A stretch of 64,000 nucleotides of DNA. It comes from Bacteroidota bacterium (GTDB lineage: Bacteria > Bacteroidota > Bacteroidia > 2-12-FULL-35-15). Below, in pieces: positions 9,011-64,000 of the stretch (position 1 is the first letter of the stretch; each line of letters starts with the position of its first letter). The notes beneath the pieces are model-generated. The model did not search any database and had not been told where the DNA came from. It saw only the letters and a list, made by a program, of their open reading frames with translations. The position numbers and the translations under genes were made by a program. The DNA lies in NCBI GenBank assembly GCA_947469885.1, contig CANIQT010000013.1:13604-77603 (forward strand), read 5' to 3'.

Positions 9011-10321
9011 CTATTTCGAAATCTCCATCTTTACTTTCTTGTTTTTTATTTTTTCATTCTTAACTAAAGAAAGGACTAAATCAATTTTTTTTCTGCTTAT
9101 TGCGGCATAAGAAGTAAAATCTAATACTTCAATTAAACCCAAATCATCCTTATTTAGCTTCCCTTTTTGCAATAGCATCCCTACTATATCCATTTTATTT
9201 ATCTTATCCTTTTTTCCAGACCCAATATAAAGTGTACACCAAGAAGTATTTTCGGGGATCAAGTTTTTTTCGGAAAGCTTTTCTTCTATAGGTTTTTCTT
9301 TTATAAAGGCTGGAACATATTCACCCTCTGATAAAATTAAATAAGAAGTTCCTGATGCATTCATTCTTGCCGTGCGCCCGTTTCGGTGAATAAATATTTC
9401 CTCGGTATGAGGTAATTGGTAATGAATAATGTTTTTTATTTCAGGAATATCAAGTCCTCTAGAAGCTAAATCAGTAGTGACTAAAATATTGTTAGTACCG
9501 TTTCTCAGCTTTATCAGTGCCCGCTCTCTGTCCTCCTGTTCCATCTTACCATGAAATGTACCATGCAACAATCCTTTCTCTTTAAGCAAATCACTGATAC
9601 GGTCCACAGCATCCCGGTGATTACAAAATACAAGAGTTCCTATATTACCTAACTTACAAATTAAACCAAACAAAGTATCCAGTTTGTCTTTTCCTTCTGA
9701 TTTTACAATTCTTAATTTTAATCCTTTGGGTTGAGTTGGCGAGTTGTTTAGAAAATTTAATTCGAAAGGGTTAGTAACCCCAGTAAATTCAGGTATTTCC
9801 ACAAGGTTTGTAGCAGAAGTAAGTATCCTTTTTTTTAATTTTTTTAATTGGAAAATTATAAACATCATTTCCTCTTTGAAACCGAATTCCAGTGCTTTAT
9901 CAAACTCATCAAGGACTAAAGATGTAATAGATGAAGTATCAAAATTATTATTCCTAATGTGATAAGCAATCCTCCCTGGTGTTCCGATAAGCAATGCTGG
10001 AGGATGTTCTAGGTTGTTCTTTTCTGTCTTTGTGGAATGGCCGCCATAACAACAATTTACCTTAAATCCCGTGTTCATTAATTTAAATACTTGTTCTATC
10101 TGCAATCCTAACTCTCTTGAAGGGACAATTATCAATGCTTGAATACCTAGACAATTTTTATCTAAAGAAATCAATAGCGGCAATAAAAACCCAATTGTTT
10201 TTCCAGAACCTGTAGGTGAAAGTAAAACTATATCATTATATTTTTTACTTGCCTCAATAGTTGAAAGTTGCATTTCATTCAGCTTTGCAACATTTAGATT
10301 ATCAAGTATTTTTTGTATCAT
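9011..10321 (-). CDS. DEAD-box ATP-dependent RNA helicase
   Basis: It carries motif I SPTGSGKT, motif II VLDEFD, motif Ib TPGRI, motif III SAT and motif VI HRNGRTAR. Confidence 0.85.
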   Translation of the reverse strand: MIQKILDNLNVAKLNEMQLSTIEASKKYNDIVLLSPTGSGKTIGFLLPLLISLDKNCLGIQALIIVPSRELGLQIEQVFKLMNTGFKVNCCYGGHSTKTEKNNLEHPPALLIGTPGRIAYHIRNNNFDTSSITSLVLDEFDKALEFGFKEEMMFIIFQLKKLKKRILTSATNLVEIPEFTGVTNPFELNFLNNSPTQPKGLKLRIVKSEGKDKLDTLFGLICKLGNIGTLVFCNHRDAVDRISDLLKEKGLLHGTFHGKMEQEDRERALIKLRNGTNNILVTTDLASRGLDIPEIKNIIHYQLPHTEEIFIHRNGRTARMNASGTSYLILSEGEYVPAFIKEKPIEEKLSEKNLIPENTSWCTLYIGSGKKDKINKMDIVGMLLQKGKLNKDDLGLIEVLDFTSYAAISRKKIDLVLSLVKNEKIKNKKVKMEISK

Positions 10322-44443: not shown

Positions 44444-44515
44444 TTCATAAAAAAACGACAAATAGAATAGTAAAAAAATTAAAAATATCCCCTATAACGA
44501 ATAAATAAATAAATT

Positions 44516-47500
44516 ATGAAAAAGAAAAATTTTAACGTAATCGTTTTGTCAATTTTCTTGGCATTTGCATTCGGTGCATTTGCAAAAGAAAACATTGGAG
44601 GTGGAAGTCATCCAACAAACCCTCCGGGTAACAATTCAGCCAAGTCGGTAAATGCTCAATGCGTAAATGCTACAGCACAAATAGATTTGGACATCAACAA
44701 TGTAAGAGCCAAAATTATGAATGGAGGCGACATGTGGTGGGATATTTTTGCTTCCACGAACGCTAGGTATCAGGTACCTAAACCTGCAAGTAGTTCTACC
44801 ATCGGACCAAGCTCACAGTTCGCAAGTTCTGTGTGGGTTGGAGGTTACGATGCTGGTGGTCAGCTAAAAGTAGCTGCTCAAACGTATCGCCAGAGCGGAA
44901 ACGACTATTGGCCCGGACCATTGAAAGATGATGCAACTACCGATGCAGGCAGATGTTTGCTTTGGGATAGATTCTACAAATTGAACCGTAAAGATGTTCA
45001 GGCTTATTACGAATGGGTAATGGGTGGTTCTATTGGAGTAAATCCTATCATTTCGGGAGCATCATTGCCTGATGCTTGGGCTACTATCACAGATTGGCCT
45101 GCTGTAAGTCCTGATAACCATCCTTTAGCTCCTTTTTATGATATTGATGCCAATAATGAATACGACCCAAGTGTGGGTGATGTTCCTGATTTTGATGTTA
45201 CTGGTACAAGAGGTTGCAATGCTCAGCTATATGGCGACCAGTGTATTTTTTGGGTGTTTAATGATAAAGGAAATATACACACCGAAACAGGAGGTGAAGC
45301 CATAGGATTGGAAGTACAGGCACAGGCATTTGCTTTTCAGACCAACGATGAAATTAACAATGCTACCTTTTACAAATATAAATTAATTAACAAAGGTTCG
45401 TTTGTATTAGATAGTACGTTCTTCGGATTGTGGGATGATGCCGATTTGGGAGATTATTCTGACGATTATGTAGGTTGTGATGTTGGTCTTGGGTTGGGTA
45501 TTCTTTATAATGGAGATGCGGTGGACGGTACCGGTGGTGCTACGCACTATGGAGCTAACCCTCCTGCAGTGGGTGTTGACTTTTTTGAAGGACCAAAGGC
45601 TGATACGAATGGTTTAGATGATCTTTCTAGTTCAAGACCGGCTTCATTCATTAATTATGGAAACACTGTGGTTGATGATGAGCGTTTAGGGATGTGTCGT
45701 TTCATGTATTTTAATAATGACTTTACTCCCGTTAACGGAAACCCGGAAGCAACAGATGATTATTACCAATACTTATCAGGAACATGGAAAAATGCAACTC
45801 CAATAACTTATGGTGGAGATGGTACAACAGGAAGTGTGCCATGTGCGTATATGTTCCCTGGAAGTTCGGATGCTCCTGCCTTTTTTGGAACAAATGGAGT
45901 AATTCAGCCAGCATGGAGCGAAACAGCAGTGCCTGCTGATAGACGTTTCCTTGAAAGTGCTGGTCCTTTTAAATTATATCCTGGTGCTGTCAACTACATT
46001 ACCGTTGGTGTTCCTTGGGCAAGAGCCACTCAAGGAGGTCCTTTGGCTTCTGTAGCACTTTTGAAAGGTGCTGACTCTAAAGTTCAGCAATTGTTCAACA
46101 ACTGTTTCTCTACGTTAAATGGTCCTGATGCTCCTAACTTAACGATTCAGGAATTGGATAAAGAATTAATATTAACCTGGTCCAATCCTTCTAATTCAAA
46201 CAACGCAAACGAAAGATATACTGAAGATTACGATAAATCCTCTGGGGCAGATTCGTTGTACCGCTTTCAAGGGTACATGGTGTATCAGTTAAAAGATGCT
46301 TCGGTGAGTGCCACCGATTTATACAATGTGGACAAGGCACGTTTAATTTTCCAGTGCGATAAAAAAGACAATGATAAACCAAATGGTGCAGCTCAGATAG
46401 TGAACTATACCAATGATATTACTATTTCAGCATTGGTTCCACAAGAAATGGTGAACGGTGTTGATAAGGGTATCATACATTCTTTGTCTGTAAAATCAGA
46501 TAAATTTGCAACTGGTAGCGATGTGTTGATTAATCACCACACCTATTATTTTGCAATTATTGCTTATGGTTACACACCAACTCAAGTGCCTACTAATCTT
46601 AACCAATTGCAAGACTACAAACCATTTATTGCAGGAAGAAGATTTATGGATGCTACTTTTTATCATACTGCTATTCCTCATATCCCTTCGCCAGAAGCAA
46701 ATGGAACACAGGCACAATCATCGTATGGTACAGGTCCAAAATTAACAAGAATAGAAGGACAGGGTAATGGTGCAATGGTGTTGGATTTAACTTCAGGTAC
46801 TGTGGACGAAATAATGAATTCAGGTTCTGGATGGCGCTCTATTCATCCTCAATATGAAAACTCTCACGGTCCAGTAAACATGAAAGTGATTGACCCATTG
46901 AATGTACCAGCCAACAGAAATTTCAGATTCATTATGAACGGAAGGGTTGTTACTAATTTATCTTCCATACCTACAACTGCTACATGGGATTTGATTGATA
47001 TGGATAATCACGATACTGTTCATTCCGAAACAAGTATTGCTTTGCCAAATGAGCAAATTATCAATGGGCAATCATCTGGTTCTGCTGCGGTTTCTATTCC
47101 TCGATGGGGGCTATCTGTTAATTCAGTTTATACGTATGATCCAGGATTAGCAGGTTGTGTTGATAATGGCTATTTGGAAGCTACAATGACTTTTGCTGAC
47201 CCTGTTAAAGCATGGTTGACGGGAGTGCCCGATGCGGAAGGATTGGATTATCATAACTGGATTCGTTCAGGAACTTTTACTTCTAAAAATCCGTTAGGAT
47301 TTGACGATTATGCAGGAAAAGACGATCAACAGTTTTACGAAAAAATGATTGGCGGCACATGGTCTCCTTATCGTATGGCTTCTATGGTGGTTCCAACCAC
47401 TGCAACAAACCCAGTAATTATGACGGGTAGTCCGGCATGGAACAGTTCTTCTGCCATGGGTCAGGATTTATTATCCAACCTTGCAAGTGTGGATGTAATT

Positions 47501-48592
47501 ATTACCAGCGACCGCTCTAAATGGACTAGATGTCCGGTTATTGAGTTGGAAGAAGCTACTAACTTGGCAATAGGCAATACTCCAAAAATGAAAATGCGTA
47601 GTTCTGCTTCAGTTGATAAAAATGGTACTGCCAACTTCCCTTCGACAGACAATAGCGATTACTCTACAGGTATGAGTTGGTTCCCTGGGTATGCAATTAA
47701 TCTTGAATCAGGAGAGCGTTTGAACATGGCTTTTGGAGAAGATTCTTGGTTGGTAGCTGACCATGGTGCAGATATGATGTGGAATCCAACTACAACGGAC
47801 CTTTCGGCAACAGACAATACTCCAGTTTTTGGAGGGAAACACTATATATATGTGTTCGGGCATAATGGTAACAAATTGTTCCCATCAAACGACCCGCATT
47901 TCCCAAATCAAATAAAAAACATGCCTCGTTACGATGGTGGTGCTTTCACTCATAATATGTTGTCGGTGGCTACCATGTCAGATGCATCTAACCTTTATGC
48001 ACGTGCGGTTTATGGCGATGCTATGTGGGTAAATATTCCTTTACTTGTACCTGGGCACAGTTTATTTGAAACTGATGTAAAAGTACGTTTGAGAGTTGCT
48101 AAATCGTACCAGTTTGGTTATGCAGGTTTAATTGCCCCTTTAACTGATACCTCGTTAACTGCTACCAATCACAATTTACCGATGTACGATTTTAATACAG
48201 CAGATATTGGAACCAAAACAAGTGATGCAGATGCTGCGGCTAATGCGCTTGACTTGATTAATGTAGTTCCAAATCCGTATTATGCGTACTCCGGATACGA
48301 ACTTTCGACAGCTGAAGTGAAAGTAAAAATAACCAATCTACCAGAAAAATGTACTGTAACTATTTATACTTTAAATGGCACATTGGTGAGAGCATTTAAA
48401 GTGGATCAGCCTGGTTATGCAAGAGACAAAATGGGGGTAGCGGTTACCTCTATTGACTGGGATTTGAAAAACCAAGTTAGAATTCCAATTTCGAGCGGAC
48501 TTTATATTATACATATAGATGTTCCTGATGTTGGAGAGAAAAACATTAAATGGTTTGGTGTGATGCGTCCGATAGATTTAGAAGCTTATTAA
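44516..48592 (+). CDS. large secreted protein (1358 aa) with T9SS type-A CTD; positional candidate for PorU-like T9SS sortase
   Basis: Signal peptide MKKKNFNVIVLSIFLAFAFGAFA. The C-terminal VVPNPYYAYSGYELSTAEVKVKITNLPEKCTVTIYTLNGTLVRAF...GLYIIHIDV is a CTD. It lies immediately upstream of a PorV-like gene, the porU-porV order. The C25 catalytic dyad is not verified. Confidence 0.5.
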   Translation: MKKKNFNVIVLSIFLAFAFGAFAKENIGGGSHPTNPPGNNSAKSVNAQCVNATAQIDLDINNVRAKIMNGGDMWWDIFASTNARYQVPKPASSSTIGPSSQFASSVWVGGYDAGGQLKVAAQTYRQSGNDYWPGPLKDDATTDAGRCLLWDRFYKLNRKDVQAYYEWVMGGSIGVNPIISGASLPDAWATITDWPAVSPDNHPLAPFYDIDANNEYDPSVGDVPDFDVTGTRGCNAQLYGDQCIFWVFNDKGNIHTETGGEAIGLEVQAQAFAFQTNDEINNATFYKYKLINKGSFVLDSTFFGLWDDADLGDYSDDYVGCDVGLGLGILYNGDAVDGTGGATHYGANPPAVGVDFFEGPKADTNGLDDLSSSRPASFINYGNTVVDDERLGMCRFMYFNNDFTPVNGNPEATDDYYQYLSGTWKNATPITYGGDGTTGSVPCAYMFPGSSDAPAFFGTNGVIQPAWSETAVPADRRFLESAGPFKLYPGAVNYITVGVPWARATQGGPLASVALLKGADSKVQQLFNNCFSTLNGPDAPNLTIQELDKELILTWSNPSNSNNANERYTEDYDKSSGADSLYRFQGYMVYQLKDASVSATDLYNVDKARLIFQCDKKDNDKPNGAAQIVNYTNDITISALVPQEMVNGVDKGIIHSLSVKSDKFATGSDVLINHHTYYFAIIAYGYTPTQVPTNLNQLQDYKPFIAGRRFMDATFYHTAIPHIPSPEANGTQAQSSYGTGPKLTRIEGQGNGAMVLDLTSGTVDEIMNSGSGWRSIHPQYENSHGPVNMKVIDPLNVPANRNFRFIMNGRVVTNLSSIPTTATWDLIDMDNHDTVHSETSIALPNEQIINGQSSGSAAVSIPRWGLSVNSVYTYDPGLAGCVDNGYLEATMTFADPVKAWLTGVPDAEGLDYHNWIRSGTFTSKNPLGFDDYAGKDDQQFYEKMIGGTWSPYRMASMVVPTTATNPVIMTGSPAWNSSSAMGQDLLSNLASVDVIITSDRSKWTRCPVIELEEATNLAIGNTPKMKMRSSASVDKNGTANFPSTDNSDYSTGMSWFPGYAINLESGERLNMAFGEDSWLVADHGADMMWNPTTTDLSATDNTPVFGGKHYIYVFGHNGNKLFPSNDPHFPNQIKNMPRYDGGAFTHNMLSVATMSDASNLYARAVYGDAMWVNIPLLVPGHSLFETDVKVRLRVAKSYQFGYAGLIAPLTDTSLTATNHNLPMYDFNTADIGTKTSDADAAANALDLINVVPNPYYAYSGYELSTAEVKVKITNLPEKCTVTIYTLNGTLVRAFKVDQPGYARDKMGVAVTSIDWDLKNQVRIPISSGLYIIHIDVPDVGEKNIKWFGVMRPIDLEAY

Positions 48593-48653
48593 TCCATTAG
48601 ATTCGCACAATAAGAATAAAAAAAATAGTATTGAACAACGAAAAAAAAAAGAT

Positions 48654-49763
48654 ATGAAAAAACGTTATAAATTAGTAGCAACTTTGGTTATTGTTGTCGT
48701 GTCATCGGTTATTCCTGGCAATATGCTAAAGGCTGGAAATCCTGACCGTGTAGGACAAGCCGGAGCAACAGAATTGTTAATAAACCCATGGGCACGTAGC
48801 TCTGGGTGGGCAGGAAGTAATGTTGCCGGAGTTAGAGGATTGGAATCCATATTTTCGAATGTGGCAGGTACAGCATTCACCAAAAAAACAGAGTTGATTT
48901 TTGCACGTACTCAATGGCTAAAAGGAACTGATATTAATATTAATGGTTTTGGTTTAACCCAACATGTGGGCGAAACAGGAGCTATTGGATTGTCGGTGAT
49001 GTCGATGAGATTTGGTGATATTCCTATTACCACCACAGATGTGCCTGAAGGCGGATTGGGAACTTTCTCTCCTCAGTTTATGAACATTACTGTTTCATAT
49101 GCAAAAGGGTTTTCGGATAATATTTATGGAGGATTAGCCGTAAAAGTAATTACCGAAAAAATTGCTAACGTGGGTGCTAGAGGTGTAGCTTTGGATGCAG
49201 GTATTCAATATGTAACCGGAAAGCGCGAACAATTGAAGTTTGGAATTGCGCTTCAAAACTGGGGACCTAAAATGAAATACACTGGAGATGGTTTAGGTTT
49301 CAAAACTCAAGTTCCGGCTAGTACCACTACTGCTACCATGACAGTTGAACAACGCTCAGAGCAATTTGAATTACCTTCGTTATTAAGCATTGGTGCAGGG
49401 TATGACTTTTATGTAAAAAAAGACAGTGCTTCGATGAAAATGCATCGCATTACTGCAATGGGAACTTTTACTTCGTGCGCATTCGACAAAAACCAATATA
49501 AATTAGGTTTGGAATACGCTTGGAAAAGTATGCTTATGCTTCGTGTAGGTTATACTATCGAAAAAGGAATTACTAAGGATTTGGATTATTCTTCGGAATC
49601 TTCTAACACAAGTTTGACCACTGCATTAAAAGGACCAAGCGCAGGTTTTACTTTTGAGATTCCGTTTGGTAAAAATAAATCAACTTTTGGTATTGATTAT
49701 TCTTACAGAGCAACCAATACTTTTGGAGGCACCCATTCGATTGGTGCACGTGTGAATTTATAG
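48654..49763 (+). CDS. PorV/PorQ-family (FadL-like) outer-membrane protein, candidate T9SS shuttle PorV
   Basis: The 369-aa product has a signal peptide, then GQAGATELLINPWARSSGWAGSNVAGVRGLESIFSNVAG, which matches the PorV-type (E/F)LLIxPDARxxGMGxxGVA N-terminal pattern. It is barrel-like and ends IGARVNL. Confidence 0.45.
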   Translation: MKKRYKLVATLVIVVVSSVIPGNMLKAGNPDRVGQAGATELLINPWARSSGWAGSNVAGVRGLESIFSNVAGTAFTKKTELIFARTQWLKGTDININGFGLTQHVGETGAIGLSVMSMRFGDIPITTTDVPEGGLGTFSPQFMNITVSYAKGFSDNIYGGLAVKVITEKIANVGARGVALDAGIQYVTGKREQLKFGIALQNWGPKMKYTGDGLGFKTQVPASTTTATMTVEQRSEQFELPSLLSIGAGYDFYVKKDSASMKMHRITAMGTFTSCAFDKNQYKLGLEYAWKSMLMLRVGYTIEKGITKDLDYSSESSNTSLTTALKGPSAGFTFEIPFGKNKSTFGIDYSYRATNTFGGTHSIGARVNL

Positions 49764-54300: not shown

Positions 54301-55635
54301 CCTACTACTATTAATAATCCTCTGCCTTGCTATGGTGTGAAGGTGGACAACAGCCGTAAGTGCAATGTGGTGGCAAACTGGGTGCTGGGCACCACCATCG
54401 ACCGTTGGGTGTATGGTATTGACCTGAATTCAGTATGCAGTAGTAATCAAGTAACCTGCAACGAAAGCCATACCGTGGGGCGTGGGTTGTTTTTTGGAGG
54501 AAACCAACTGCCCGGTACGTTAATAGCAAAAAACATGATGGATAATAACCTGGAAGGGTTTGTGATAAATGGAAATAATGGTCAAGTTGGTCCTCAGAGC
54601 AGTTTTTTCGGTGTTTCGTGCGATAATACTTGGTCGCCTAATATGACCTTTAACACAGCAAATTACGGTAACGCTCCAGGGAATCTCTCTATCTTATATG
54701 TTAGAACTCCATGCGGTACTCCTTACTGCCCTAGTCCTTGGAATATGTATCCAGGTTCTTTACTTTATAATATACCTCAATTTGTTGCTGCAAGCAATTT
54801 AAGTTACACCTGTCCTGTGGTATTGCATCCCTTTGCAAATGCAGCAACTCATGCCATGTTATTAAAAATAGCAGGTGATTCAATTCCTGTTGAAGAATAC
54901 GATTCTGCAACCATATTTATGATGCACCAAAACCTGTATAGATACTTAGCCTCCGATTCTACTTTTTTAACCAACGACAGTTTATTACAATCGTTTGTTC
55001 AGGAAATGAATGAAGGTAATCTTGGAAAGTTAGATTCTATAGAGCGTATGTTTGCTAAACCAGCCACAATGGATACCACCCAATTGCTTAGTTTGCTGGC
55101 ACTGGTCAATTCTATTACTGCCAGCAGCAGTGTGGAAGCAAACAGTGCATGGCTATACAAACAAATGCTAACCAATTTGCTTCAACGCAAAGAATGGGAC
55201 AGCACTCAAATATACAGCTTGAGAGACTTGGCATGGAAATGTGCTCATACCGATGGGGCAGCAGTGCTACAGGCAAGAGCCATATTGTCTCAGTTAGACA
55301 CTGTTGAATATTATAATATTTGCGAACTTGGAGATGAGTTGACTCCAAAAATCCATTGGACAGTTAATCAACCTACCAAAAGGAATTCATTCAAATTGTT
55401 TCCAAATCCAAACAATGGACAAATGAATTTGATTTATTCATTAAGTAAATCAGATAAGGGTGAATTAAATTTATATGATTTAAGAGGGTTACTAATTAGA
55501 AAATACTCATTGCAATCTGGCGAAAATAATCAATTGTTCATTAATGAATCAGAATTAGGTAACGGAGTATATTTTTATAAAGTGATGGTGAATGATGAAT
55601 TAAAATCAAGTGACAAGATTGTAATTATTAAATAA
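51358..55635 (+). CDS. very large secreted protein: CBM4_9-like N-terminal jelly-roll domain, parallel beta-helix repeats, T9SS type-A CTD
   Basis: The real start is probably 51403 (MKKQLLKLVMLACIFIGVGA signal). PbH1-like repeats include NNITIGSAASANLL..., NHIVNAQIGIDCFNS... and NNIRITPTTINN.... The C-terminal KLFPNPNNGQMNLIYSLSK...NGVYFYKVMVNDELKSSDKIVIIK is a CTD. Confidence 0.65.
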   Translation: MNFRLQIINPKTKNEMKKQLLKLVMLACIFIGVGAKTMNAQSGDSCTTAKDFLPDTSMVPQVEIMSNGTVWYKFTAIDSNLTIKLVELFSSPGNKVLSVKVRIANCSNPSIIASDTITDLYDSALVITTTLLDSGSVYYLEITKNNSTEEVKMLIVVDNNPKINWGCTVPPQCEYVFNGDFEDYLSVPTGGPNQYNPGQIFRTCNWSTANIGTPDYFMTIAPANSNFGVPNNVAGAGAFSINSAGTTPSGGAYGGINAWWGGQPAGLSECIQGNLVCPLTAGVNYIVSFYVHQASFSHFTVPMLGAAITNGSIATATVFAPVPPAGSVIAGGLTSTNNWQLITGVYCATGGEDHITIGDFWPLQPPIPNGFGQAQAAYYYIDGISVSPMPLAVTTSTICSGETPVLNNNYCGAQMDWTSTYPWSCAACIDPNPSLPFLSSSESFTATLTLCDGCVQTSTAVVTVAQPPVIIITGSITSCTGAGTVYTALQLGVTQSPVTYSWTASNGASQSGTSNTFTPGFSSAGGTIYCTITNAATGCKGTASLYVGSCCEPPTPNINFTNTAVNVLPGSLAANSMGTWNSSTYEVKGKTFSINGTFTVNMDLTLMGCTVLMGYGTTINISPGKKLIITDLVDPTLPWLISHLYACKEMWSGINVIYSNSSLLIDHGTTIEDAETAVFATNGGDVTIGGYYNQTGQLKVIFNKNLKNVVINNSGTHVYTTNTITATDFECIVGQIPQGGSNVNGGNFLMFPHANIRPDVGVDLNMVNNITIGSAASANLLNKFENMDYGIRSDKSNLIVYNNLFQDITMPQNIFIGSCLPGTAICAKGNISSNYPPYMIVGSSSAGNYINTFNNCGVGIDAGKTMNQTIWENHFNNIKKWAIRENTNLTCSIVIAQNHIVNAQIGIDCFNSLFSYVDIYNNDITNSGGLANVIGINVNEPTPSPTGYYRIHYNNINYVRSGILANGLTGSNIDRNNIRITPTTINNPLPCYGVKVDNSRKCNVVANWVLGTTIDRWVYGIDLNSVCSSNQVTCNESHTVGRGLFFGGNQLPGTLIAKNMMDNNLEGFVINGNNGQVGPQSSFFGVSCDNTWSPNMTFNTANYGNAPGNLSILYVRTPCGTPYCPSPWNMYPGSLLYNIPQFVAASNLSYTCPVVLHPFANAATHAMLLKIAGDSIPVEEYDSATIFMMHQNLYRYLASDSTFLTNDSLLQSFVQEMNEGNLGKLDSIERMFAKPATMDTTQLLSLLALVNSITASSSVEANSAWLYKQMLTNLLQRKEWDSTQIYSLRDLAWKCAHTDGAAVLQARAILSQLDTVEYYNICELGDELTPKIHWTVNQPTKRNSFKLFPNPNNGQMNLIYSLSKSDKGELNLYDLRGLLIRKYSLQSGENNQLFINESELGNGVYFYKVMVNDELKSSDKIVIIK

Positions 55636-55644
55636 ATAACTTTA

Positions 55645-55680
55645 AACAATAACTTCTATCAAATGATAGAAGTTATTGTT
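55645..55680 (+). terminator. perfect 16-bp-stem hairpin (aacaataacttctatc / gatagaagttattgtt), terminator/attenuator 12 nt before the next ATG
   Basis: The inverted repeat is read directly and is followed by tatcttt. Confidence 0.5.
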
Positions 55681-55692
55681 TATCTTTGAAAG

Positions 55693-56673
55693 ATGAAAAA
55701 AATATTAAATCTTATATTTTGTGTTTTGTGTTTCGTGAATAATCTCAAGTCGCAAAATCTTGTACCTAACGAATCATTTGAAGTTTTGGACAGTTGCCCA
55801 AACAATCAGGGAAGAATATATCTTGCTCTGCCGTGGTTTCAACCTTGCATATATTCAGGTAATACCCATAACTCTTCAAGCTCCGATATTTACAATCCAT
55901 GTGCTTTATGGGCTCCAGCTGGAGTTCCGGTCAATATGGTTGGTTCCCAATTTGCCAGAATTGGTGTTGGATATGCAGGTATTCACCCAGATGTTGACAC
56001 TTTTAATTACCGCGAATACATTGAAGTCCCATTATTATCGCCATTAATTGCCAATAAACTGTATTGTGTAAAGTTTTATGTTTCCTTGGCTGAAACGTCA
56101 CATCATGCCATAAGTAATATGGGGGCATATTTTTCAAATGATAGCTTATTGGATACTTCGTATTATCATGCCATAGATTATGTTTTTCCGCAAATAGAAA
56201 ATCCTGGAAATGTTTTTTTAAATGATACTGCAAATTGGGTGTTGGTTTGGGGTAATTTTATTGCTACTGGTGGAGAGCGGTTTATGACAATAGGAAATTT
56301 TCATAATCATGCAAATACAAATGTTCAAAATTTGAACGGAGGTTCTCTAGGCAACTGGTCGTATTATTACATAGATGATGTAAGTGTTATAGATTGCGAT
56401 AGTATAAGTGGGGTAAAAGAAATGAATGATGAAATGGAAGTGAGCATTGCGCCCAACCCGGCAAAGGATGAATTACGAATTAAGAATTATGAATTAGGAA
56501 TTAAAACAATAAAAATATATAACCTGCTAAGTGAATGTGTCTATAACACAACAATAAAACAATTAAACACTATAACCATTGATGTTGCCTATTTACCCAA
56601 AGGCATCTATTTTATTGAACTGCAAAGTGAGAAAGGAACTGCGAGAAAGAAGTTTATAAAGGACGGCAAATAG
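55693..56673 (+). CDS. secreted CBM4_9-like domain protein with T9SS type-A CTD (paralog A)
   Basis: Signal peptide MKKILNLIFCVLCFVNNLKSQ, an NLVPNESFE jelly-roll start, and the C-terminal SIAPNPAKDELRIKN...KGIYFIELQ CTD. Confidence 0.65.
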   Translation: MKKILNLIFCVLCFVNNLKSQNLVPNESFEVLDSCPNNQGRIYLALPWFQPCIYSGNTHNSSSSDIYNPCALWAPAGVPVNMVGSQFARIGVGYAGIHPDVDTFNYREYIEVPLLSPLIANKLYCVKFYVSLAETSHHAISNMGAYFSNDSLLDTSYYHAIDYVFPQIENPGNVFLNDTANWVLVWGNFIATGGERFMTIGNFHNHANTNVQNLNGGSLGNWSYYYIDDVSVIDCDSISGVKEMNDEMEVSIAPNPAKDELRIKNYELGIKTIKIYNLLSECVYNTTIKQLNTITIDVAYLPKGIYFIELQSEKGTARKKFIKDGK

Positions 56674-56698
56674 CCAGTGGTTATTTGAGCGAGTATGT

Positions 56699-57388
56699 GT
56701 GAATGCAGATTCCACTTTTTTAACCAACGACAGTTTATTACAATCGTTTGTTCAGGAAATGAATGAAGGTAATTTAGGAAAATTAGATTCCATTGAGCGG
56801 ATGTTTGCAAAACCAGCTACAATGGATACCACCCAATTACTTAGCTTACTGGCATTGGTCAATTCCATTACTGCAAGCAGCGCGGTGGAGGCAAATAGTG
56901 CCTGGCTGTACAAACAAATGCTTGGAAATTTATTAGCTGGAAAAGATTGGGACAGTACTCAAATATCCAGTTTGAAAGATTTGGCTTGGAAATGCGCCCA
57001 CACCGATGGGGCGGCAGTGCTGCAAGCAAGAGCTATTTTATCGCAATTAGATACTGTTGAATATTATAATATTTGCGAACTTGGAGATGAGTTGACTCCA
57101 AAAAGCCATTGGACAGTTAATCAACCTATGAAAGGGAATTCCTTCAAATTATTTCCTAATCCCAATAATGGTAGTATGAATTTGATATATACTTTGAATA
57201 AAAATGAGAAAGGGGAATTATATCTTTATGATTTGGCGGGAATACTGATTAAAAAATATACTTTACAAGTAGGTGAAAACAATCAACTTTTCATCAATGA
57301 GTCAGCATTGAGTAATGGTGTGTATTTTTATAAAGTAATGATAAACGATGAATTAAAAACAAGTGCAAAAATTGTAATTATTAAATAA
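56699..57388 (+). pseudogene. truncated duplicate of the C-terminal 229 aa (linker + CTD) of the 1425-aa protein; no signal peptide
   Basis: 56706-57388 aligns with 54958-55635 at roughly 85-90 percent identity, with long perfectly identical patches. The ATG at 56699 is created at the duplication junction. Confidence 0.55.
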
Positions 57389-57397
57389 ATAACTTTA

Positions 57398-57434
57398 AAC
57401 ATAAACTTCTATCAAACTGATAGAAGTTTATGTT
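57398..57434 (+). terminator. second copy of the 16-bp-stem hairpin, with two compensatory base-pair swaps
   Basis: aacataaacttctatc / gatagaagtttatgtt. Stem positions 5 and 6 changed in both arms so that pairing is preserved. Confidence 0.5.
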
Positions 57435-57446
57435 TATCTTTGGAAG

Positions 57447-58415
57447 ATGAATAAAGCATTCTTTCTTTTCGTAATATTGAACTTGACTCAGAATCTTTCA
57501 ATGAATGGACAAAACCTTGTACCTAATTCCTCTTTTGAAGTAATTGATTCTTGCCCTACTATAGATGGAAAGCTATATTTTGCGCAACCATGGTTTCAGC
57601 CCTGCATTTATTATGGGAACACGAAAAACTCTTCTAGTTCCGACATCTTCAGTTATTGTGCGTCATACATGGGTGTTCCTACTAATGGAGAAGGTTCTCA
57701 ATTTGCAAGGACAGGTAACGGATATGCAGGTTTTAGTCCTTACGCTGGTATTAATAATGGTCGCGAATATAACGAAGTTCAACTATTATCACCGTTAATA
57801 GCCAATAAACTCTATTGTGTAAAATTTTATGTTTCATTAGCTGAAACCTCACGATACGCAATTAGCAAATTAGGTGTGTATTTTTCCGTAGATAGTTTAT
57901 TAGATACTTCCTATTATCATGCAATAGATTATGTTTTTCCGCAAGTAGAAAACCCTAGTAATATTTTTTTAAATGATACATCTAATTGGATGTTGGTATG
58001 GGGAAATTTTGTTGCAACTGGTGGAGAGCGGTTTATGACAATTGGTAATTTTCATAATCCCGCAAATACAAATGTTCAAAACGTAAACGGAGGTTCTTTT
58101 TATTGGACATATTATTATATAGATGATGTAAGTGTAGTAGATTGTGATAGTATAAGTGGGGTAGGGGAAATTAATGGAGAGGTGGATGTGAGCATTGCGC
58201 CTAATCCTGCAACGGATGAATTACGAATTAAGAATTATGAATTAGGAATTAAAACAATAAAAATATATAACCTGCTAAGTGAATGTGTCTATAACACAAC
58301 AATAAAACAATTAAACACTATAACCATTGATATTGCCTATTTACCCAAAGGCATCTATTTTATTGAAGTACAAAGTGAGAAAGGAATAAAGAGGAGAAAG
58401 TTTGTGAAAGAATAA
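57447..58415 (+). CDS. secreted CBM4_9-like domain protein with T9SS type-A CTD (paralog B)
   Basis: The 322-aa product is collinear with paralog A at about 75 percent aa identity. Its CTD coding part is nearly nucleotide-identical to that of paralog A. Confidence 0.65.
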   Translation: MNKAFFLFVILNLTQNLSMNGQNLVPNSSFEVIDSCPTIDGKLYFAQPWFQPCIYYGNTKNSSSSDIFSYCASYMGVPTNGEGSQFARTGNGYAGFSPYAGINNGREYNEVQLLSPLIANKLYCVKFYVSLAETSRYAISKLGVYFSVDSLLDTSYYHAIDYVFPQVENPSNIFLNDTSNWMLVWGNFVATGGERFMTIGNFHNPANTNVQNVNGGSFYWTYYYIDDVSVVDCDSISGVGEINGEVDVSIAPNPATDELRIKNYELGIKTIKIYNLLSECVYNTTIKQLNTITIDIAYLPKGIYFIEVQSEKGIKRRKFVKE

Positions 58416-58596
58416 AAACACGATTAACCCACCAACATCCTCCTCGTCATAAATTTCTTATTTCTTCGATTTGCGATATAAAAATTTTTACTACTTTGGT
58501 GCAACCATTTTAATGTTCTAAGCATCCTTATAGATGGGTGGTGGAATTGGAACAATTTATTGTTAACCATTTTAGTTAATTTAAATCTACTTTTAG

Positions 58597-58908
58597 ATGA
58601 AAAAAATAATTTTAGCATGTGTTGTATCTGTTTTTTTTGTGGGTGTTTCTATAAGTCAAACCACTGCTGAACCTGCAAAACTAACCGCTGCAAGCATAGA
58701 AGGAACTTACCAAATTCAGGTGGTTAATTCGAGAAATCAACCTTACATACCTGCTAACCTTAACCAGTTAGTGTTAGACAACAGAGATGCCACTGAGGTA
58801 AAATATGTGACTTTAGGAACAGAAGTACGTTTGAAAGTACTTCCACTTTCCGAAATAAATAAGCCTGATTTTAAACCTTTACAAAAGATTGCGCATGTTC
58901 GTAATTAA
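58597..58908 (+). CDS. small secreted hypothetical protein
   Basis: Signal peptide MKKIILACVVSVFFVGVSISQ, a 103-aa product. Confidence 0.45.
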   Translation: MKKIILACVVSVFFVGVSISQTTAEPAKLTAASIEGTYQIQVVNSRNQPYIPANLNQLVLDNRDATEVKYVTLGTEVRLKVLPLSEINKPDFKPLQKIAHVRN

Positions 58909-58918
58909 ATTCATTAAC

Positions 58919-61900
58919 ATGAAAAGAGTACTTTTCCTTGTTTCCTTATTTGTTTTCAATTTTGCATTTGGTCAGGCTCCGCCAAATGATAACTGTATAA
59001 CCCCACAGGTTATTGTTATTCCTGCATCTGGTACAATTTGTGTTAACTCAACCAACATAAACGCCACAAGCGATGGGTTTCTGAACACTTGCGATGTAGG
59101 TGTTCCGGGCAATGAAGTATGGTTTGCATTTGTTGCAACCGGAACTTCCAACACTGTTACAATCACACCAAATGGCGGGACTCCTGCACAGTTTGCGGTG
59201 GTTTCGATGCAAAATACCAATTGCGCTTCGGGCTCTTATAACATTTGTAATGCCAGTGCAACAGCAGGTGGTGCGGCATCGGTTACTTATTCTTACACTC
59301 CGGGTTCCCAAATATTATTTTCGGTAGAAACAGAAGGGGCAGACGGAACCTTTCAGGTGTGTGTAACCTCCACTACTCCACCTCCCGGACCAGGTAGTTC
59401 GTGTGCTACCGCAACATCTATTTGTACAATGGCTCCGTTTACTCAAAATCCAATGCCGTCCAATGTGACTGCATTGTTACCATCTTGTTTTTTTGTTAAT
59501 CTTCAACAACCGGTGTTTTATCAGTTTACAGCTGGTACCACCGGAACTTGTGCTTGGTCTGCTACTCCGCTTGGAGCGGTTGAATACGATTGGGCAATGT
59601 ACAATATTACAGCTGGTTGCCCAGGAGTGGAAGTTGCTTGCAATTATGATTATAATTTCAGCGCAGGTTCACCTGTAGGAATGGCTATAGGTTCGCCATC
59701 CCTCTGCCCAACTAGTTCAGTGGCGGTGAGTGCATCTGATGAAATGTGCCCTCCCATTGTTGTCACAGCCGGGCAAACCTATTTGATTGTGATAGATAAT
59801 TTCGACTTTAATGGTATCGGATTTGATTTTGCTTGGGGCAATGGAACTTTTCAGATGCCAAGTTCTTCGTTTACTGTAAATCCAACAAATGCCTGCAATT
59901 CGGCACTTGCTACATTTGTAAATAATAGTGTGCCTGTTGCTGCTGCTTCTCATTGGGATTTTGGTGATGGAACTACTTCTAACCTTCACAGTCCGCCACC
60001 ACACAATTATCCTACACCCGGAACTTATTTGATTTCGTTAACCACTACTACCGCTAACGGTTGTCAATATATCAGTTCGAACAGTGTTACGGTAAATACG
60101 ACACCAACCATGACCACACCACCCAACATTTCGGTGTGTGCAGGTACAGCCATTGCAGCAAGTAATTTTGTGAGTAACCCTACGGGAGCCACCTTCGCAT
60201 GGACCAACTCAAATAACGCCATCGGATTGGCTGCTAATGGAACAGGAAACACCCCTGCTTTCACTTCCACTAATGGTACAGGTTCAAATATTGTTTCTAC
60301 CATCACTGTTACTCCTACTCGAAATGGATGTGCGGGAACACCAGTAAATTATACTATTACTGTTACACCTGGTCCAACCATTGCTAATGCAGGTCCCGCA
60401 CAAAGTGTTTGCGGTACAACAGCCACACTTGCCGGAAACACAGCAACTACAGGGGTAGGAACATGGACACTCGTTAGCGGTGCAGGAACAATTACAAATC
60501 CGAATTCACCAACATCTGGTGTAACAGGGCTTGGAGTAGGTGCCAATGTTTTTCAATGGACAATTATTAGTGCACCTTGCCCAAATTCTACTAGCCAAGT
60601 AACTATCACCTCTGGAAACGCCACCAGTGCCTCGGTTGCAGGTCCTAATCAAACCGTTTGTGGCACCACAGCAACACTAGCAGGAAATGCTCCTGCGGTT
60701 GGTGTGGGTACTTGGACATTAGTAAGCGGAGCAGGAACTATCACTACTCCCGGTTCTCCAACATCAGGGTTAACCGCCCTTGGAGTAGGTGCCAATGTTT
60801 TTCAATGGACAATAACCAACGCAGGATGCCCTTCTACTTCTAGTCAAGTAACTATTACTGCAGGTGCTATACCAACTGTGGCAGTTGCAGGAGGTAATCA
60901 AATTGTATGTGGAACAACTGCTACATTGGGTGGTAACACCGCAACTGTTGGTGTTGGCACATGGACACTGGTTTCGGGAGCAGGAACCATTACCAGTCCT
61001 AATTCACCATCATCAGGTGTAACAGCACTTGGACCCGGTGCCAATGTATTTCAATGGACGATTGCACTTTTACCCTGTCCTGCTACGTCAAGTCAAGTAA
61101 CCATCACTTCGGTGCAAGTACCCACTGTAGCTGCTGCAGGACCTAATCAAACCGTTTGCGGAACGAATGCAACATTAGCAGGAAATGTTGCAGCCATCGG
61201 AACCGGGCTTTGGACTGTCGTTAGCGGTTCGGGAACAATTGCCAACACTGGATTAAACAACTCTGCTATAACAGCACTTGGTGCAGGAGCCAATGTGTTT
61301 CAATGGACTATATCGAATGCACCATGCGCTTCCACATCAGGTCAGGTAACCATAACAGGAGTTACACCACCAACGGTGGCAGCTGCAGGACCTAATCAAA
61401 CTGTTTGTGGAACTACCGCTACATTAGCTGGAAACCTTGCTGCATCAGGCACAGGGCTATGGACATTGATAAGCGGTACAGGAACAATTACTACCCCGTC
61501 TTCTGAAACATCAGGATTAACAGCACTTGGAGTAGGAGCCAATGTATTTCAATGGACCATATCCAATGCGCCTTGCCCTACATCCACTAGTCAGGTAACC
61601 ATTACAGGAGTTGCGGTGCCTACTGTAGCTGTTACGGGACCTAACCAAACAGTTTGTGCCACTACCACCAACTTAGCCGGAAACATTGCAGCTGCTGGTT
61701 CAGGGCTTTGGACATTAGTAAGCGGAGCAGGAACAATAACAACACCAGCATCCGAATCAACTGGAATAACAGCACTTGGCATAGGAGCCAATGTGTTTCA
61801 ATGGACCATCTCAAATGCACCTTGCCCTTCCACTTCGAGCCAGGTAACCATTACCGCAGGCACACCTTCTACAGTTGCAGCTGCCGGACCCAATCAAACC

Positions 61901-64000
61901 GTTTGTGGAACGTCAGCAACACTTGCAGGAAACGCTGCTGTGGTTGGAGTTGGAGTGTGGACACTGGTTTCAGGAAGCGGAACCATTACCAATCCTACGT
62001 TACCTAATTCGGGAGTTACGGGTTTAGGATTTGGAGCCAATGTGTTTCAATGGGAAATTGATAATCTTCCTTGTCCTCCATCCACTAGTCAGGTAACTAT
62101 TACAGCTGTTGATGTTCCTACTGTTTCGGTGGCAGGTCCTAATCAAAATATTTGCGGAACTACCGCCACATTAGCCGGAAATGCTGCAACAACAGGCACG
62201 GGACTATGGACATTGGTTAGTGGAAGCGGAACTATTTCAACACCTTCGCTCGCAACATCAGGTATTACAGGGTTGACAGTGGGTAACAATGTTTTCGACT
62301 GGACCATTTCCAATGCACCTTGTCCTGCTTCTTCTACACAAGTAACTATTGCTGTTAGTTCCATACCAACGGTTGCCAATGCAGGACCTAATCAAACTGT
62401 ATGCGGAACAACAGCTACATTAGCAGGAAATACTGCTACAACAGGTGTTGGAACCTGGACATTAATTTCAGGTGCCGGAACAATTACTAATCCTGCATTG
62501 GAAAATTCAGGTGTTACAGGTCTTGGACCGGGAGCAAATGTGTTTCAATGGCAGATAGATTTATTGCCTTGCCCGCAAACAACCAGTCAGGTAACTATTA
62601 CATCCGTTGCTACTCCAACTGTGGCAGCAGCTGGACCTAACCAAACAGTTTGCGGAACAACTGCAACATTAGCAGGAAACCTTGCTGCCGTGGGTACAGG
62701 AGTATGGACATTAGTTTCAGGAACTGGAACAATTACCAATACAGGATTAAATAATTCAGGTATTACAGCACTTGGAGCAGGAGCTAATGTATTTCAATGG
62801 ACTATTTCGAATGCGCCTTGTCCTGCTTCTACTAGTCAGGTAACCATTACAGGCGTTTCTATACCAACTGTTGCCAATGCAGGAGCTAATCAAACAGTTT
62901 GCGGAACCAATGCTACATTAGCCGGAAATGCTGCTGCTGTTGGTACAGGAGCATGGACAGTCGTTAGCGGAAGCGGTACATTTACAAATTCTACCTCTGA
63001 AACATCAGGTATTACTGCACTTGGAGTAGGTGCCAATGTTTTTGAATGGACGATATCAAATGGTATTTGTCCTCCAACATCAAGTCAGGTAACCATTACA
63101 GGAGTAGCTACTCCAACCGTTGCTGCTGCAGGACCTAACCAAACCATTTGTGCTACTACAGCTACATTAGCCGGAAATATTGCCACCACAGGCACAGGAG
63201 TGTGGACAGTAGTAAGTGGTGCAGGAACTATCACTAATCCTGCTTCTCCAACTTCAGGAGTTACTGGCTTAACTGTTGGTACAGATGTGTTTCAATGGAC
63301 GATTACTAATGCACCTTGTCCTGCAAGTTCAAGTCAAGTTACAATCACAGTAGGTGCCCCAACCACTATTGCTAACGCTGGTGTAAATCAAAACGTTTGC
63401 GGAACAACAGCTACTTTAGCAGGTAATGTGCCTGTTACCGGAACAGGTGCATGGACAGTAGTTAGCGGAGGAGCAACTGTTACAAGTCCATTAGCTTTCA
63501 ATTCAGGTGTTACCAATCTTGCACCTGGGGCTAATGTTTTTGAATGGACTATCTCTAGTGCTAACTGTCCTCCAACTACCAGTCAGGTAACTATTACAGC
63601 TACTCCAATACCTCCTGCACCGGTTGTTGTATCGCCTCTCAACTATTGTCAGTTTGATGTGGCAGGTGTTCTTTCAGCTACAGGAACCAATTTATTATGG
63701 TACACCAATTCCACTGGTGGTGTTGGAAGCCCTATAGCACCAACTCCTTCTACTACTTTATCTGGTACCACTAATTATTATGTTTCGCAAACAATAAACG
63801 GATGCGAAGGTCCGAGAACTTTTATTGCGGTGATTGTGGCTACCTTTCCTGTTGCAAGTTTTTATGCTCCGTTAACAAGCAGTATCGAAAATCCGGTTAT
63901 TCATTTTACAGACGAATCAGTGGGTGCTACTTCATGGTCGTGGAATTTTGGTGATTTTTCATCAGGAGCAAATAACACGAGTACTTCTCAAAACCCAACC
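58919..64000 (+). CDS. giant cell-surface adhesin-like protein, 5' 1694 codons (continues beyond window): N-terminal domain, PKD domain, then 13 tandem ~80-aa Ig/PKD-like repeats
   Basis: Signal peptide MKRVLFLVSLFVFNFAFGQ and a PKD-like HWDFGDGTTSNLHSPPPHNY. Repeats of the form PTVAAAGPNQTVCGTTATLAGN...GTWTLVSGAGTITNP...GANVFQWTISNAPCP.STSQVTIT run from about 60350 to 63600 with a 240-bp period. Antisense track ORFs within are artefacts. Confidence 0.75.
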   Translation, partial: MKRVLFLVSLFVFNFAFGQAPPNDNCITPQVIVIPASGTICVNSTNINATSDGFLNTCDVGVPGNEVWFAFVATGTSNTVTITPNGGTPAQFAVVSMQNTNCASGSYNICNASATAGGAASVTYSYTPGSQILFSVETEGADGTFQVCVTSTTPPPGPGSSCATATSICTMAPFTQNPMPSNVTALLPSCFFVNLQQPVFYQFTAGTTGTCAWSATPLGAVEYDWAMYNITAGCPGVEVACNYDYNFSAGSPVGMAIGSPSLCPTSSVAVSASDEMCPPIVVTAGQTYLIVIDNFDFNGIGFDFAWGNGTFQMPSSSFTVNPTNACNSALATFVNNSVPVAAASHWDFGDGTTSNLHSPPPHNYPTPGTYLISLTTTTANGCQYISSNSVTVNTTPTMTTPPNISVCAGTAIAASNFVSNPTGATFAWTNSNNAIGLAANGTGNTPAFTSTNGTGSNIVSTITVTPTRNGCAGTPVNYTITVTPGPTIANAGPAQSVCGTTATLAGNTATTGVGTWTLVSGAGTITNPNSPTSGVTGLGVGANVFQWTIISAPCPNSTSQVTITSGNATSASVAGPNQTVCGTTATLAGNAPAVGVGTWTLVSGAGTITTPGSPTSGLTALGVGANVFQWTITNAGCPSTSSQVTITAGAIPTVAVAGGNQIVCGTTATLGGNTATVGVGTWTLVSGAGTITSPNSPSSGVTALGPGANVFQWTIALLPCPATSSQVTITSVQVPTVAAAGPNQTVCGTNATLAGNVAAIGTGLWTVVSGSGTIANTGLNNSAITALGAGANVFQWTISNAPCASTSGQVTITGVTPPTVAAAGPNQTVCGTTATLAGNLAASGTGLWTLISGTGTITTPSSETSGLTALGVGANVFQWTISNAPCPTSTSQVTITGVAVPTVAVTGPNQTVCATTTNLAGNIAAAGSGLWTLVSGAGTITTPASESTGITALGIGANVFQWTISNAPCPSTSSQVTITAGTPSTVAAAGPNQTVCGTSATLAGNAAVVGVGVWTLVSGSGTITNPTLPNSGVTGLGFGANVFQWEIDNLPCPPSTSQVTITAVDVPTVSVAGPNQNICGTTATLAGNAATTGTGLWTLVSGSGTISTPSLATSGITGLTVGNNVFDWTISNAPCPASSTQVTIAVSSIPTVANAGPNQTVCGTTATLAGNTATTGVGTWTLISGAGTITNPALENSGVTGLGPGANVFQWQIDLLPCPQTTSQVTITSVATPTVAAAGPNQTVCGTTATLAGNLAAVGTGVWTLVSGTGTITNTGLNNSGITALGAGANVFQWTISNAPCPASTSQVTITGVSIPTVANAGANQTVCGTNATLAGNAAAVGTGAWTVVSGSGTFTNSTSETSGITALGVGANVFEWTISNGICPPTSSQVTITGVATPTVAAAGPNQTICATTATLAGNIATTGTGVWTVVSGAGTITNPASPTSGVTGLTVGTDVFQWTITNAPCPASSSQVTITVGAPTTIANAGVNQNVCGTTATLAGNVPVTGTGAWTVVSGGATVTSPLAFNSGVTNLAPGANVFEWTISSANCPPTTSQVTITATPIPPAPVVVSPLNYCQFDVAGVLSATGTNLLWYTNSTGGVGSPIAPTPSTTLSGTTNYYVSQTINGCEGPRTFIAVIVATFPVASFYAPLTSSIENPVIHFTDESVGATSWSWNFGDFSSGANNTSTSQNPT

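Follow-up and report, generated by a model that had tools for sequence, protein, structure and literature searches.

The window analysed here, a stretch of 64,000 nucleotides from a metagenome-derived Bacteroidota bacterium (GenBank assembly GCA_947469885.1, contig CANIQT010000013.1, positions 13,604 to 77,603), carries a tandem array of genes for cargo proteins of the T9SS (type IX secretion system). Two units stand head to tail, each pairing the 3′ end of a large cargo gene with a complete small cargo gene. In the first unit the 3′ end belongs to the intact 1425-aa gene 1, followed by gene 2 (326 aa); in the second it stands alone as an open reading frame (ORF), ORF3, which is a 5′-truncated copy of the gene-1 tail followed by gene 4 (322 aa). 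ORF3 is not a decaying relic; it is open and conserved at the protein level under purifying selection. Truncated tails of the same kind were also found beside related small genes in other Bacteroidota. Tandem segmental duplication itself is ordinary, routine genome evolution. The duplication seen here is real but ordinary in that sense; what was not expected is that the truncated tails have persisted and that they recur.

The original prediction, made from the letters of the window alone, described a tandem duplication of a gene tail together with a gene encoding a carbohydrate-binding-module (CBM)-like domain and a C-terminal sorting domain (CTD). This was upheld, with the limits of the units refined to 54958-~56660 and 56711-~58408 (Table 1). 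Repeat limits and identity were taken from a direct-repeat search followed by a global alignment of 54950-56680 with 56703-58425 (1738 columns), in which the two units, of ~1.75 kb each, share 79% identity. Three long direct-repeat pairs were found, with copy offsets of 1748-1754 nt. The left edge of homology is abrupt and lies inside gene 1 (54958/56711); at the right edge homology fades in the region of the gene-2 and gene-4 stop codons (~56660/~58408). Each unit comprises the last 678 nt of gene 1 (or the ORF at 56699-57388), a 57-nt hairpin spacer and the 326-aa (or 322-aa) gene. The junction between the units contains the stop codon of gene 2 (TAG 56671-56673) and the first in-frame start of ORF3. 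The divergence between units had been put at about 10-25 percent overall, but local values are higher, reaching about 50% in 50-nt windows. As the window is a metagenome scaffold the repeat might be suspected of being an assembly artefact, but this can be considered already refuted, because the gene-2/ORF3 junction recurs at 100% identity in four independent assemblies (L001, L002, L003 and L005) from different assemblers and different samples, and the copies differ at 21% of positions overall. The ENA contigs L001-L005 are all 100% identical to the window, and therefore offered no usable strain polymorphism.

Each of the four ORFs terminates in a type-A T9SS sorting domain (PF18962 / TIGR04183; 38-52 bits against cut-offs of 23-27), in agreement with their earlier description as CTD-encoding. 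The score of ORF3 (44.9 bits) is higher than that of gene 1 (38.4 bits), and the domain has the seven-stranded beta-sandwich fold of solved CTDs. Signal-peptide-like N-termini were recognised by inspection in genes 1, 2 and 4; in gene 1, M16 precedes the signal peptide. Gene 1 encodes an internal jelly-roll domain (aa ~196-387), a C-terminal helical domain (aa ~1204-1340) and the sorting domain (aa 1347-1423). Its internal domain is homologous to the N-terminal domain of the small 326- and 322-aa proteins, hereafter 32x proteins (tblastn, 32% identity; hidden Markov model (HMM), 3e-19). An internal 32x-like domain was also observed in large proteins of loci L024, L060, L067, L073 and L077.

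The AlphaFold2 model of the 326-aa protein has a pLDDT (predicted local distance difference test) of 91, and its N-terminal domain is a beta-jelly roll. Foldseek matched this domain to CBM4, CBM22 and CBM16 structures in the PDB (3k4z, E 6e-9; 3p6b; 4bj0; 2y64, target TM 0.69; 4xuo; E 6e-9 to 1e-4 overall), whilst a Pfam/NCBIfam search with it gave no match at E<=0.01, including no membership of CBM_4_9. The earlier label "CBM-like" is therefore sound at the level of the predicted fold, with no sequence family matched. By contrast, the "linker" assigned to the tail was a misnomer; this segment is a folded 8-helix domain of about 135 aa. It carries a co-varying pair of cysteines, both present in 27 of the 32 aligned sequences that cover the two positions and both absent in five, and the truncated tail copies keep the pair.

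ORF3 consists of the helical domain and the type-A sorting domain, and shares 87% amino-acid identity with the tail of gene 1. Its frame is open only from 56660, with candidate starts at GTG 56699 or at ATG 56759, the latter being present in gene 1 as well. The "new ATG" originally proposed for it, at 56703, is out of frame (ATG CAG ATT CCA CTT TTT TAA). As was originally noted, the protein lacks a signal peptide: by inspection its N-terminus, VNADSTFLTNDSLL, has no hydrophobic core. The segments that differ from gene 1 include TPKSHWTVNQPMK and QMLGNLLAGK. Between ORF3 and the gene-1 tail there are ~74 synonymous and ~41 nonsynonymous changes, giving a ratio of nonsynonymous to synonymous divergence (dN/dS) of 0.08 at a synonymous divergence (dS) of about 1 (Nei-Gojobori), with zero stops or indels over 229 codons. 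In a neutral simulation of the ORF3 lineage about 155 nonsynonymous differences were expected (41 observed) and an amino-acid identity of about 36% (87% observed), and the frame remained open in only 5e-5 of runs. A pseudogene that had merely been overwritten by the functional copy through conversion would, we reason, still show a pairwise dN/dS near 0.5. The second tail had been described as an orphan; in the sense of a relic this does not hold, given its dN/dS and the occurrence of the same kind of truncated tail by 32x-type genes in unrelated Bacteroidota.

Table 1. Positions of the genes, repeat units, identical tracts and spacer elements in the window.
Feature	Start	End	Strand	Description	Source
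Gene 1	51358	55635	+	large T9SS cargo, 1425 aa from first ATG (1410 aa from M16)	
Repeat unit A	54958	56660	+	gene-1 tail, hairpin A and gene 2	repeat search, alignment
60-nt identical tract	54961	55020	+	same as 56714-56773; left edge of unit	
52-nt identical tract	55300	55351	+	same as 57053-57104; end of helical domain	
Hairpin A	55645	55682	+	arms AAACAATAACTTCTATCA / TGATAGAAGTTATTGTTT; minimum-free-energy stem 15 bp, extendable to 18 bp	
-7 box before gene 2	55681	55688	+	TATCTTTG, perfect match to the Bacteroidetes -7 promoter box TAnnTTTG; 4 nt before gene-2 ATG	
Gene 2	55693	56673	+	326 aa; signal peptide, CBM4/22-like jelly-roll, type-A T9SS sorting domain (aa 254-322)	
118-nt identical tract	56466	56583	+	same as 58214-58331; sorting-domain coding part of genes 2 and 4	
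Duplication junction	56661	56710	+	~45 nt without partner in the other unit	alignment
ORF3	56699	57388	+	5′-truncated copy of gene-1 tail; 229 aa from GTG 56699 (209 aa from ATG 56759)	
Repeat unit B	56711	58408	+	ORF3, hairpin B and gene 4; 79% identical to unit A	repeat search, alignment
Hairpin B	57398	57436	+	arms AAACATAAACTTCTATCA / TGATAGAAGTTTATGTTT; two compensated base-pair swaps relative to hairpin A	
-7-box-like motif before gene 4	57435	57442	+	TATCTTTG; 4 nt before gene-4 ATG	
Gene 4	57447	58415	+	322 aa; paralogue of gene 2, amino-acid identity about 73%, dN/dS 0.185	

Relatives of the module were sought with the N-terminal domain of the 32x proteins. With one genome taken per species, >509 relatives were found, almost all from Bacteroidota, and 84 loci found via this domain were scanned with small HMMs. 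The helical domain was present in the ORF directly upstream of a 32x-type gene at 18 of the 84 loci, where it usually ends a 1200-2400-aa protein that also has an internal 32x-like domain. An exhaustive search with a profile of the tail gave 297 cluster representatives at E<=1e-30, mostly at the C-terminal end of proteins of 1000-3000 aa. Among the best 150 tail-family members about 34 are under 300 aa in length, and their N-terminal end points differ; contig edges may have cut some of them. The 32x-type proteins number >1200 and the tail clusters about 300.

Truncated tail ORFs that lack both the 5′ part of the gene and a signal peptide recur independently, in L073, L027, L014, L059, L043, L006 and L096. 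L073 holds an array of >2092, 328, 232, 330, 218 and 313 aa followed by further units, and L014 one of 1459, 412, 113 and 411 aa. In L027 (161, 509, 138 and 506 aa) there is no large gene in the ~4 kb upstream, and in L006 a tail of 218 aa precedes a gene of 311+ aa with no large gene nearby; the truncated tail of L096 has only 48 nt of upstream sequence available. These tails are also constrained. Two truncated tails of L073 that share the same left boundary have a dS of 1.2 and a dN/dS of 0.19, and the values of dN/dS for L027 and L014 are 0.16 and 0.26 respectively. A dN/dS of 0.12 was obtained for the tail of L095 against that of L073, the 5′ end of the former lying at a contig edge, so that it may not be truncated. 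A literature search returned no relevant description of truncated or signal-peptide-less T9SS CTD genes, and conserved headless ORFs of a helical domain and CTD, paired with small CBM-like cargo, were not found described.

Several observations on these loci stand apart from the question of constraint. In L059 an ORF resembling the tyrosine transposases of the IS200/RAYT type (MSTRYKFHAADGIYFISFATVGW..., 6721-7443) lies between the 32x gene and the truncated CTD ORF. L091 and L092 have the same gene order downstream of their 32x pair and are wholly different upstream of position 9209, where L091 has an extra inverted unit of CTD remnant and 32x gene; a rearrangement breakpoint thus lies right at the cassette. 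Upstream of the 218-aa tail gene of L006, a ~930-nt non-coding stretch contains a short internal repeat (9100-9420), which appears as the repeated peptide ...KGETCEA... in a spurious ORF. P0228, a 187-aa member of the tail family, starts with the signal-peptide-like MKKLYILSIFCLINSSIF, and from this sequence may be a truncated tail with an acquired export signal. Lastly, P0004 (L007 424-1380) is a 318-aa 32x-type protein from another metagenome whose CTD is 66% identical to that of ORF3, resembling the tail type rather than the gene-2 type. Its sequence suggests that sorting domains have been exchanged between the two partners of the module.

Some other accounts of ORF3 were tried and rejected or judged unlikely. 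The segment at M42 (MDTTQLLSLLALV...), considered as an internal signal peptide, is modelled as a helix buried in the fold and lacks hydrophobic character in homologues. Programmed recoding from gene 2 into ORF3 is inconsistent across arrays, the frame being +1 here and 0 (with a second stop between), +2 or unlinked in others. That a second, full-length gene 1 was lost by deletion not long ago was judged unlikely, since tandem full-length large genes were seen at 0 of the 84 loci. Second-order selection, acting via conversion into gene 1, was set aside by reasoning and not by computation: a dS of about 1 would place the conversion rate at about the mutation rate, which is too low for a frame to be kept open by it.

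The two units are a mosaic of diverged and identical segments. Both identical strings quoted in the original prediction are present, and a codon-wise alignment confirmed that divergence is not uniform: the share of synonymous sites that differ (pS) varies between 0 and 0.85, and the identical tracts stand in a background in which 50-80% of synonymous sites differ. After the three tracts listed in Table 1 the next-longest perfectly identical runs are of 35 and 31 nt. The tracts were tested on degenerate codons whose amino acid is unchanged between the copies, permuting synonymous states within degeneracy classes, and proved non-random. Genes 2 and 4 share 56 consecutive degenerate codons without a synonymous difference (56461-56637, p<5e-5), whilst the tails share a run of 25 codons at 55300-55386 (p = 0.001) and one of 19 codons at 54961-55020 (p<5e-5 as second-longest run). 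Along the tail part pS starts at 0.33 (left edge), lies at 0.6-0.7 over the helical domain, drops to 0.2 at 55318 and reaches 0.8 over the sorting domain. In gene 2 it falls from 0.65-0.85 in the 5′ half to 0.3-0.5 in the 3′ half and 0 in the sorting domain. The proposal of ongoing conversion over the CTD regions therefore stands for the 326/322-aa pair only. In the tails the CTDs are the most diverged segment, and the identity tracts fall within the helical domain and on the unit's left edge.

The silent-site mosaic between the copies is real, and its identical tracts probably arose by gene conversion or unequal crossing-over. Arrays elsewhere are also mosaic, with a 702-nt identical 3′ half in L014 and tracts of 124 and 121 nt in L027. 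Moreover, one contig from another sample, KAVA23-1 (L090; ENA ERZ28593167, 1369 nt), is a one-unit version of the array, in which window positions 55612-56583 are joined exactly to 58332-58728. The crossover lies inside the 118-nt identical tract and yields a gene-2/gene-4 hybrid (P0007). Two origins are conceivable for this contig: the copies may have recombined to give a natural deletion, or the assembly may have run through the repeat and produced a chimera. No third allele of genes 2 and 4 or of the tails was found in a search of 5.8 billion proteins, the next relative being 56-57% identical for genes 2 and 4 and 38% identical for the tails.

The reading that we favour, and to which we would give an even chance, is that this region is a two-unit array of a conserved module, that its duplication is old and partially homogenised, and that ORF3 is functional. 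The module consists of a large protein's helical domain and type-A sorting domain and, after these, a small CBM4/22-like secreted protein that has a sorting domain of its own. The array would have originated by tandem duplication with a left breakpoint in gene 1 and a right breakpoint at the end of gene 2. A duplication that keeps gene 2 together with its control region would have to start inside gene 1, and because the left breakpoint fell there, a headless gene-1 tail would have come to lie before the second small gene. The duplication is old, with a synonymous divergence of about 0.8-1. After the copies had diverged, short segments would have been re-homogenised, namely the 118-nt tract in the sorting domain, the 60-nt left edge and the 52-nt tract. 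Divergence is likely to have occurred in situ rather than by imported alleles, as no third allele was found in the protein search. ORF3 would be translated from GTG 56699 or ATG 56759 and act with the small cargo genes. Translation is likely given that the frame stayed open and was conserved at the protein level, and a translated, functional ORF3 is in our view the likeliest reading. It is also the weakest step of the explanation, since no way is known by which a sorting-domain protein lacking a signal peptide could get to the T9SS.

A number of observations weigh against a functional ORF3. T9SS cargo require Sec export, and we know of no role for a cytoplasmic protein with a sorting domain; none of the truncated tails in the sequenced loci found has a signal peptide. 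The co-variation of the cysteine pair in the helical domain suggests a disulfide and hence an extracytoplasmic life. The start context of ORF3 is unremarkable. Truncation points vary widely among lineages, from 27 to 252 aa, and decayed remnants exist, frameshifted in L021 and reduced to a 27-aa CTD remnant before the 32x gene in L091 and L008. Such variable end points and remnants are what by-products of duplication would be expected to look like. The dN/dS between paralogues may also mislead if segments were imported from functional alleles of other strains, and a metagenome scan with ORF3 returned no closer outgroup relative.

It is possible, though doubtful, that only the small cargo gene and its upstream control were selected. 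The tail fragment would have been carried along, as any duplication of gene 2 must start inside gene 1, and the core of ORF3 would have been imported by homologous recombination from functional alleles that related strains carry, or else the truncation would be recent. The varying truncation points fit this account, as do decayed or partial remnants before 32x genes in L021, L091, L008 and also L014, and the lack of a signal peptide in ORF3. So does the about 15-fold variation of synonymous divergence along the unit, low at both edges and saturated in the middle, as a replaced core would leave it. However, no donor-like third allele was present in the collection of 5.8 billion proteins, though the organism has been assembled from at least 5 samples. 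The two truncated tails of L073 with the same boundary stayed open under constraint at a dS of 1.2, and the absence of tandem full-length large genes from the surveyed loci leaves a recent truncation without its precursor.

An account that we consider unlikely treats ORF3 and gene 4 as a silent reserve like cdiA-CT/cdiI or rhs-CT/rhsI, in which ORF3 is not translated alone. Recombination at the left edge would fuse ORF3 to gene 1 and delete the gene-1 tail and gene 2, so that the C-terminal domain and its partner gene would be exchanged at once. In its anatomy the array equals the orphan modules of contact-dependent inhibition (CDI) systems (PMC3150448; PMC3967940). There one or more 5′-truncated fragments of the 3′ end of the main gene, without start or secretion signals and each with its own small gene, lie downstream of the full-length gene and its partner; variable upstream homology is kept, and deletions can fuse the orphan to the main gene (PMC3150448, PMC3967940). 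ORF3 is likewise a truncated 3′ copy with its own small gene downstream of gene 1, and the same applies to L073, L014 and L059. Identity peaks at the left edge of the unit, in the 60-nt tract, as it also does between units 2 and 3 of L073 and in L027 and L014. The one-unit contig L090, with its crossover inside an identical tract, and the retention of the cysteine pair in truncated copies point in the same direction.

Against such a reserve, the module has no toxin or immunity domain and neither a VENN nor a PxxxxDPxGL demarcation motif. No toxin or immunity family was matched in Pfam/NCBIfam scans and Foldseek searches of the module, PADLOC and toxin libraries not being among those scanned. 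The route is the T9SS here and T5/T6 in CDI and Rhs systems, and the small partner here is itself secreted. Being 87% identical in protein, the tails are not polymorphic, unlike CDI and Rhs orphans, and a swap would alter little. Over the rest of the tails dS is about 1, from which recombination would be rare, too rare for second-order selection. L006, L027 and L096 show no full-length gene in the upstream sequence at hand (only 48 nt in L096), and the deletion would be one-way. No fusion of gene 1 to ORF3 was found; the sole recombinant is the gene-2::gene-4 contig L090, which is possibly chimeric.

Bacterial tandem duplication with gene conversion is commonplace, and the array resembles ordinary concerted evolution in its head-to-tail units, mosaic identity and possible loss of a unit (L090). 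It differs in that a fragment non-functional from birth should have decayed at a dS of about 1, which ORF3 did not. Among T9SS cargo, the KLIKK proteases of Tannerella forsythia are encoded by paralogous genes with near-identical C-terminal regions (PMC4404884), and domain rearrangements are described for kgp, rgpA and hagA of Porphyromonas gingivalis (PMC5266723). These are likewise clusters of T9SS cargo in which the sorting-domain ends are near-identical, the rest is diverged and recombination between paralogues yields variants, matching the 118-nt CTD tract shared by genes 2 and 4 as well as the tract of 702 nt in L014. However, the genes there are complete and have signal peptides, no constrained headless tail ORFs are described, and the cargo is unrelated (proteases and adhesins there, a pair of helical-domain and CBM-like proteins here).

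The module of a helical and sorting-domain tail with CBM-like cargo is widespread in uncultured Bacteroidota and unstudied, and constrained headless tails in several lineages are not predicted by the T9SS export model of a Sec signal peptide and a CTD. If the headless ORFs are expressed, they would point to an intracellular role of sorting domains or an unrecognised export route; if they are recombination reserves, the orphan-module strategy would extend beyond toxin systems. A broader and improbable reading is that T9SS surface proteins carry an exchangeable C-terminal module co-adapted with its CBM-like partner, headless spares of which are stored downstream, kept functional, and swapped or expressed. 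Under that improbable reading the arrays would be either a T9SS counterpart of the CDI/Rhs orphan arrays or a new class of signal-peptide-less sorting-domain proteins.

The spacer between each tail and its small gene contains a strong hairpin, with fold energies of -22.5 (A) and -22.8 kcal/mol (B), z-scores of -7.3 and -7.6 against shuffles, and stems of 15-16 bp that can be extended to 18 bp in both copies. The two hairpins had been predicted to differ by two compensatory base-pair swaps, and folding of both copies confirmed that pairing is kept. Between the copies the arms show a single kind of change, AT->TA at two stacked pairs, in the same place on both arms; one loop base differs in addition. 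By our calculation the chance that two changes per arm would both preserve pairing is about 1/1400. The spacer is about 90% identical, compared with 53-83% difference at flanking synonymous sites. A dispersed repeat element was ruled out as the source of the hairpin, as only the two sites occur within the 64 kb and no family was matched in an Rfam search.

Right behind each stem, TATCTTTG lies 4 nt before the start codon of the small gene, and this box also precedes other genes of the window, at 11-25 nt. The simplest reading is that the spacer would act as a terminator or insulator for the upstream gene and as a promoter for a nearly leaderless small-gene transcript, the hairpin ending the upstream transcript and the -7 box starting the next. 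The terminator or attenuator role suggested for the hairpin in the original prediction is plausible. As in intrinsic terminators, a strong stem-loop stands right after the stop codon, is followed by a U-rich stretch (UUUAUCUUU) and has a stem kept by compensation. It differs from them in being AT-rich, with only 4 G-C pairs of 18, and in having an interrupted U-tract (UUUAUCUUUG follows the stem) that is at the same time a -7 promoter box, 4 nt ahead of the next ATG; a terminator consensus scan flagged the minus strand only. Strong hairpins occur at the same position in related loci with a 45-60 nt spacer (L021, -29 kcal/mol; L077, a classic stem and U6; L012). Another difference from intrinsic terminators is that the spacer is absent altogether from many homologous loci, where the two genes lie 0-4 nt apart and there is no hairpin.

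Compensation may alternatively have come about without selection on an RNA stem, by templated mutation of a quasi-palindrome in which one DNA arm is corrected against the other during replication. Templated correction of quasi-palindromes is an established mutational mechanism, which speaks for this account. The change is of the fitting kind, one dinucleotide (AT->TA) being altered alike at positions that mirror each other in a perfect DNA palindrome. We nevertheless hold the account to be doubtful, as the whole spacer is more conserved than neighbouring synonymous sites, both copies are still perfect 18-bp palindromes after a dS of about 1, and unrelated loci have different, equally strong hairpins at the same position.

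Upstream of the array, window positions 40700-49763 contain a TonB-dependent-receptor-like gene of 1247 aa, a 1358-aa gene whose product is weakly PorZ-like at its C-terminus, and a PorV/PorQ-family gene (48654-49763; 147 bits against NF033709). The cargo module therefore adjoins T9SS-related outer-membrane genes. Downstream, a gene on the + strand occupies 58919-64000 and runs off the window; it contains 13 head-to-tail copies of a 249-nt (83-aa) unit at 60374-63617, which are 63-83% identical. On the source contig the product of this gene is 1819 aa long; it has PKD domains and, at its C-terminus, a CHU_C (type-B T9SS) domain.

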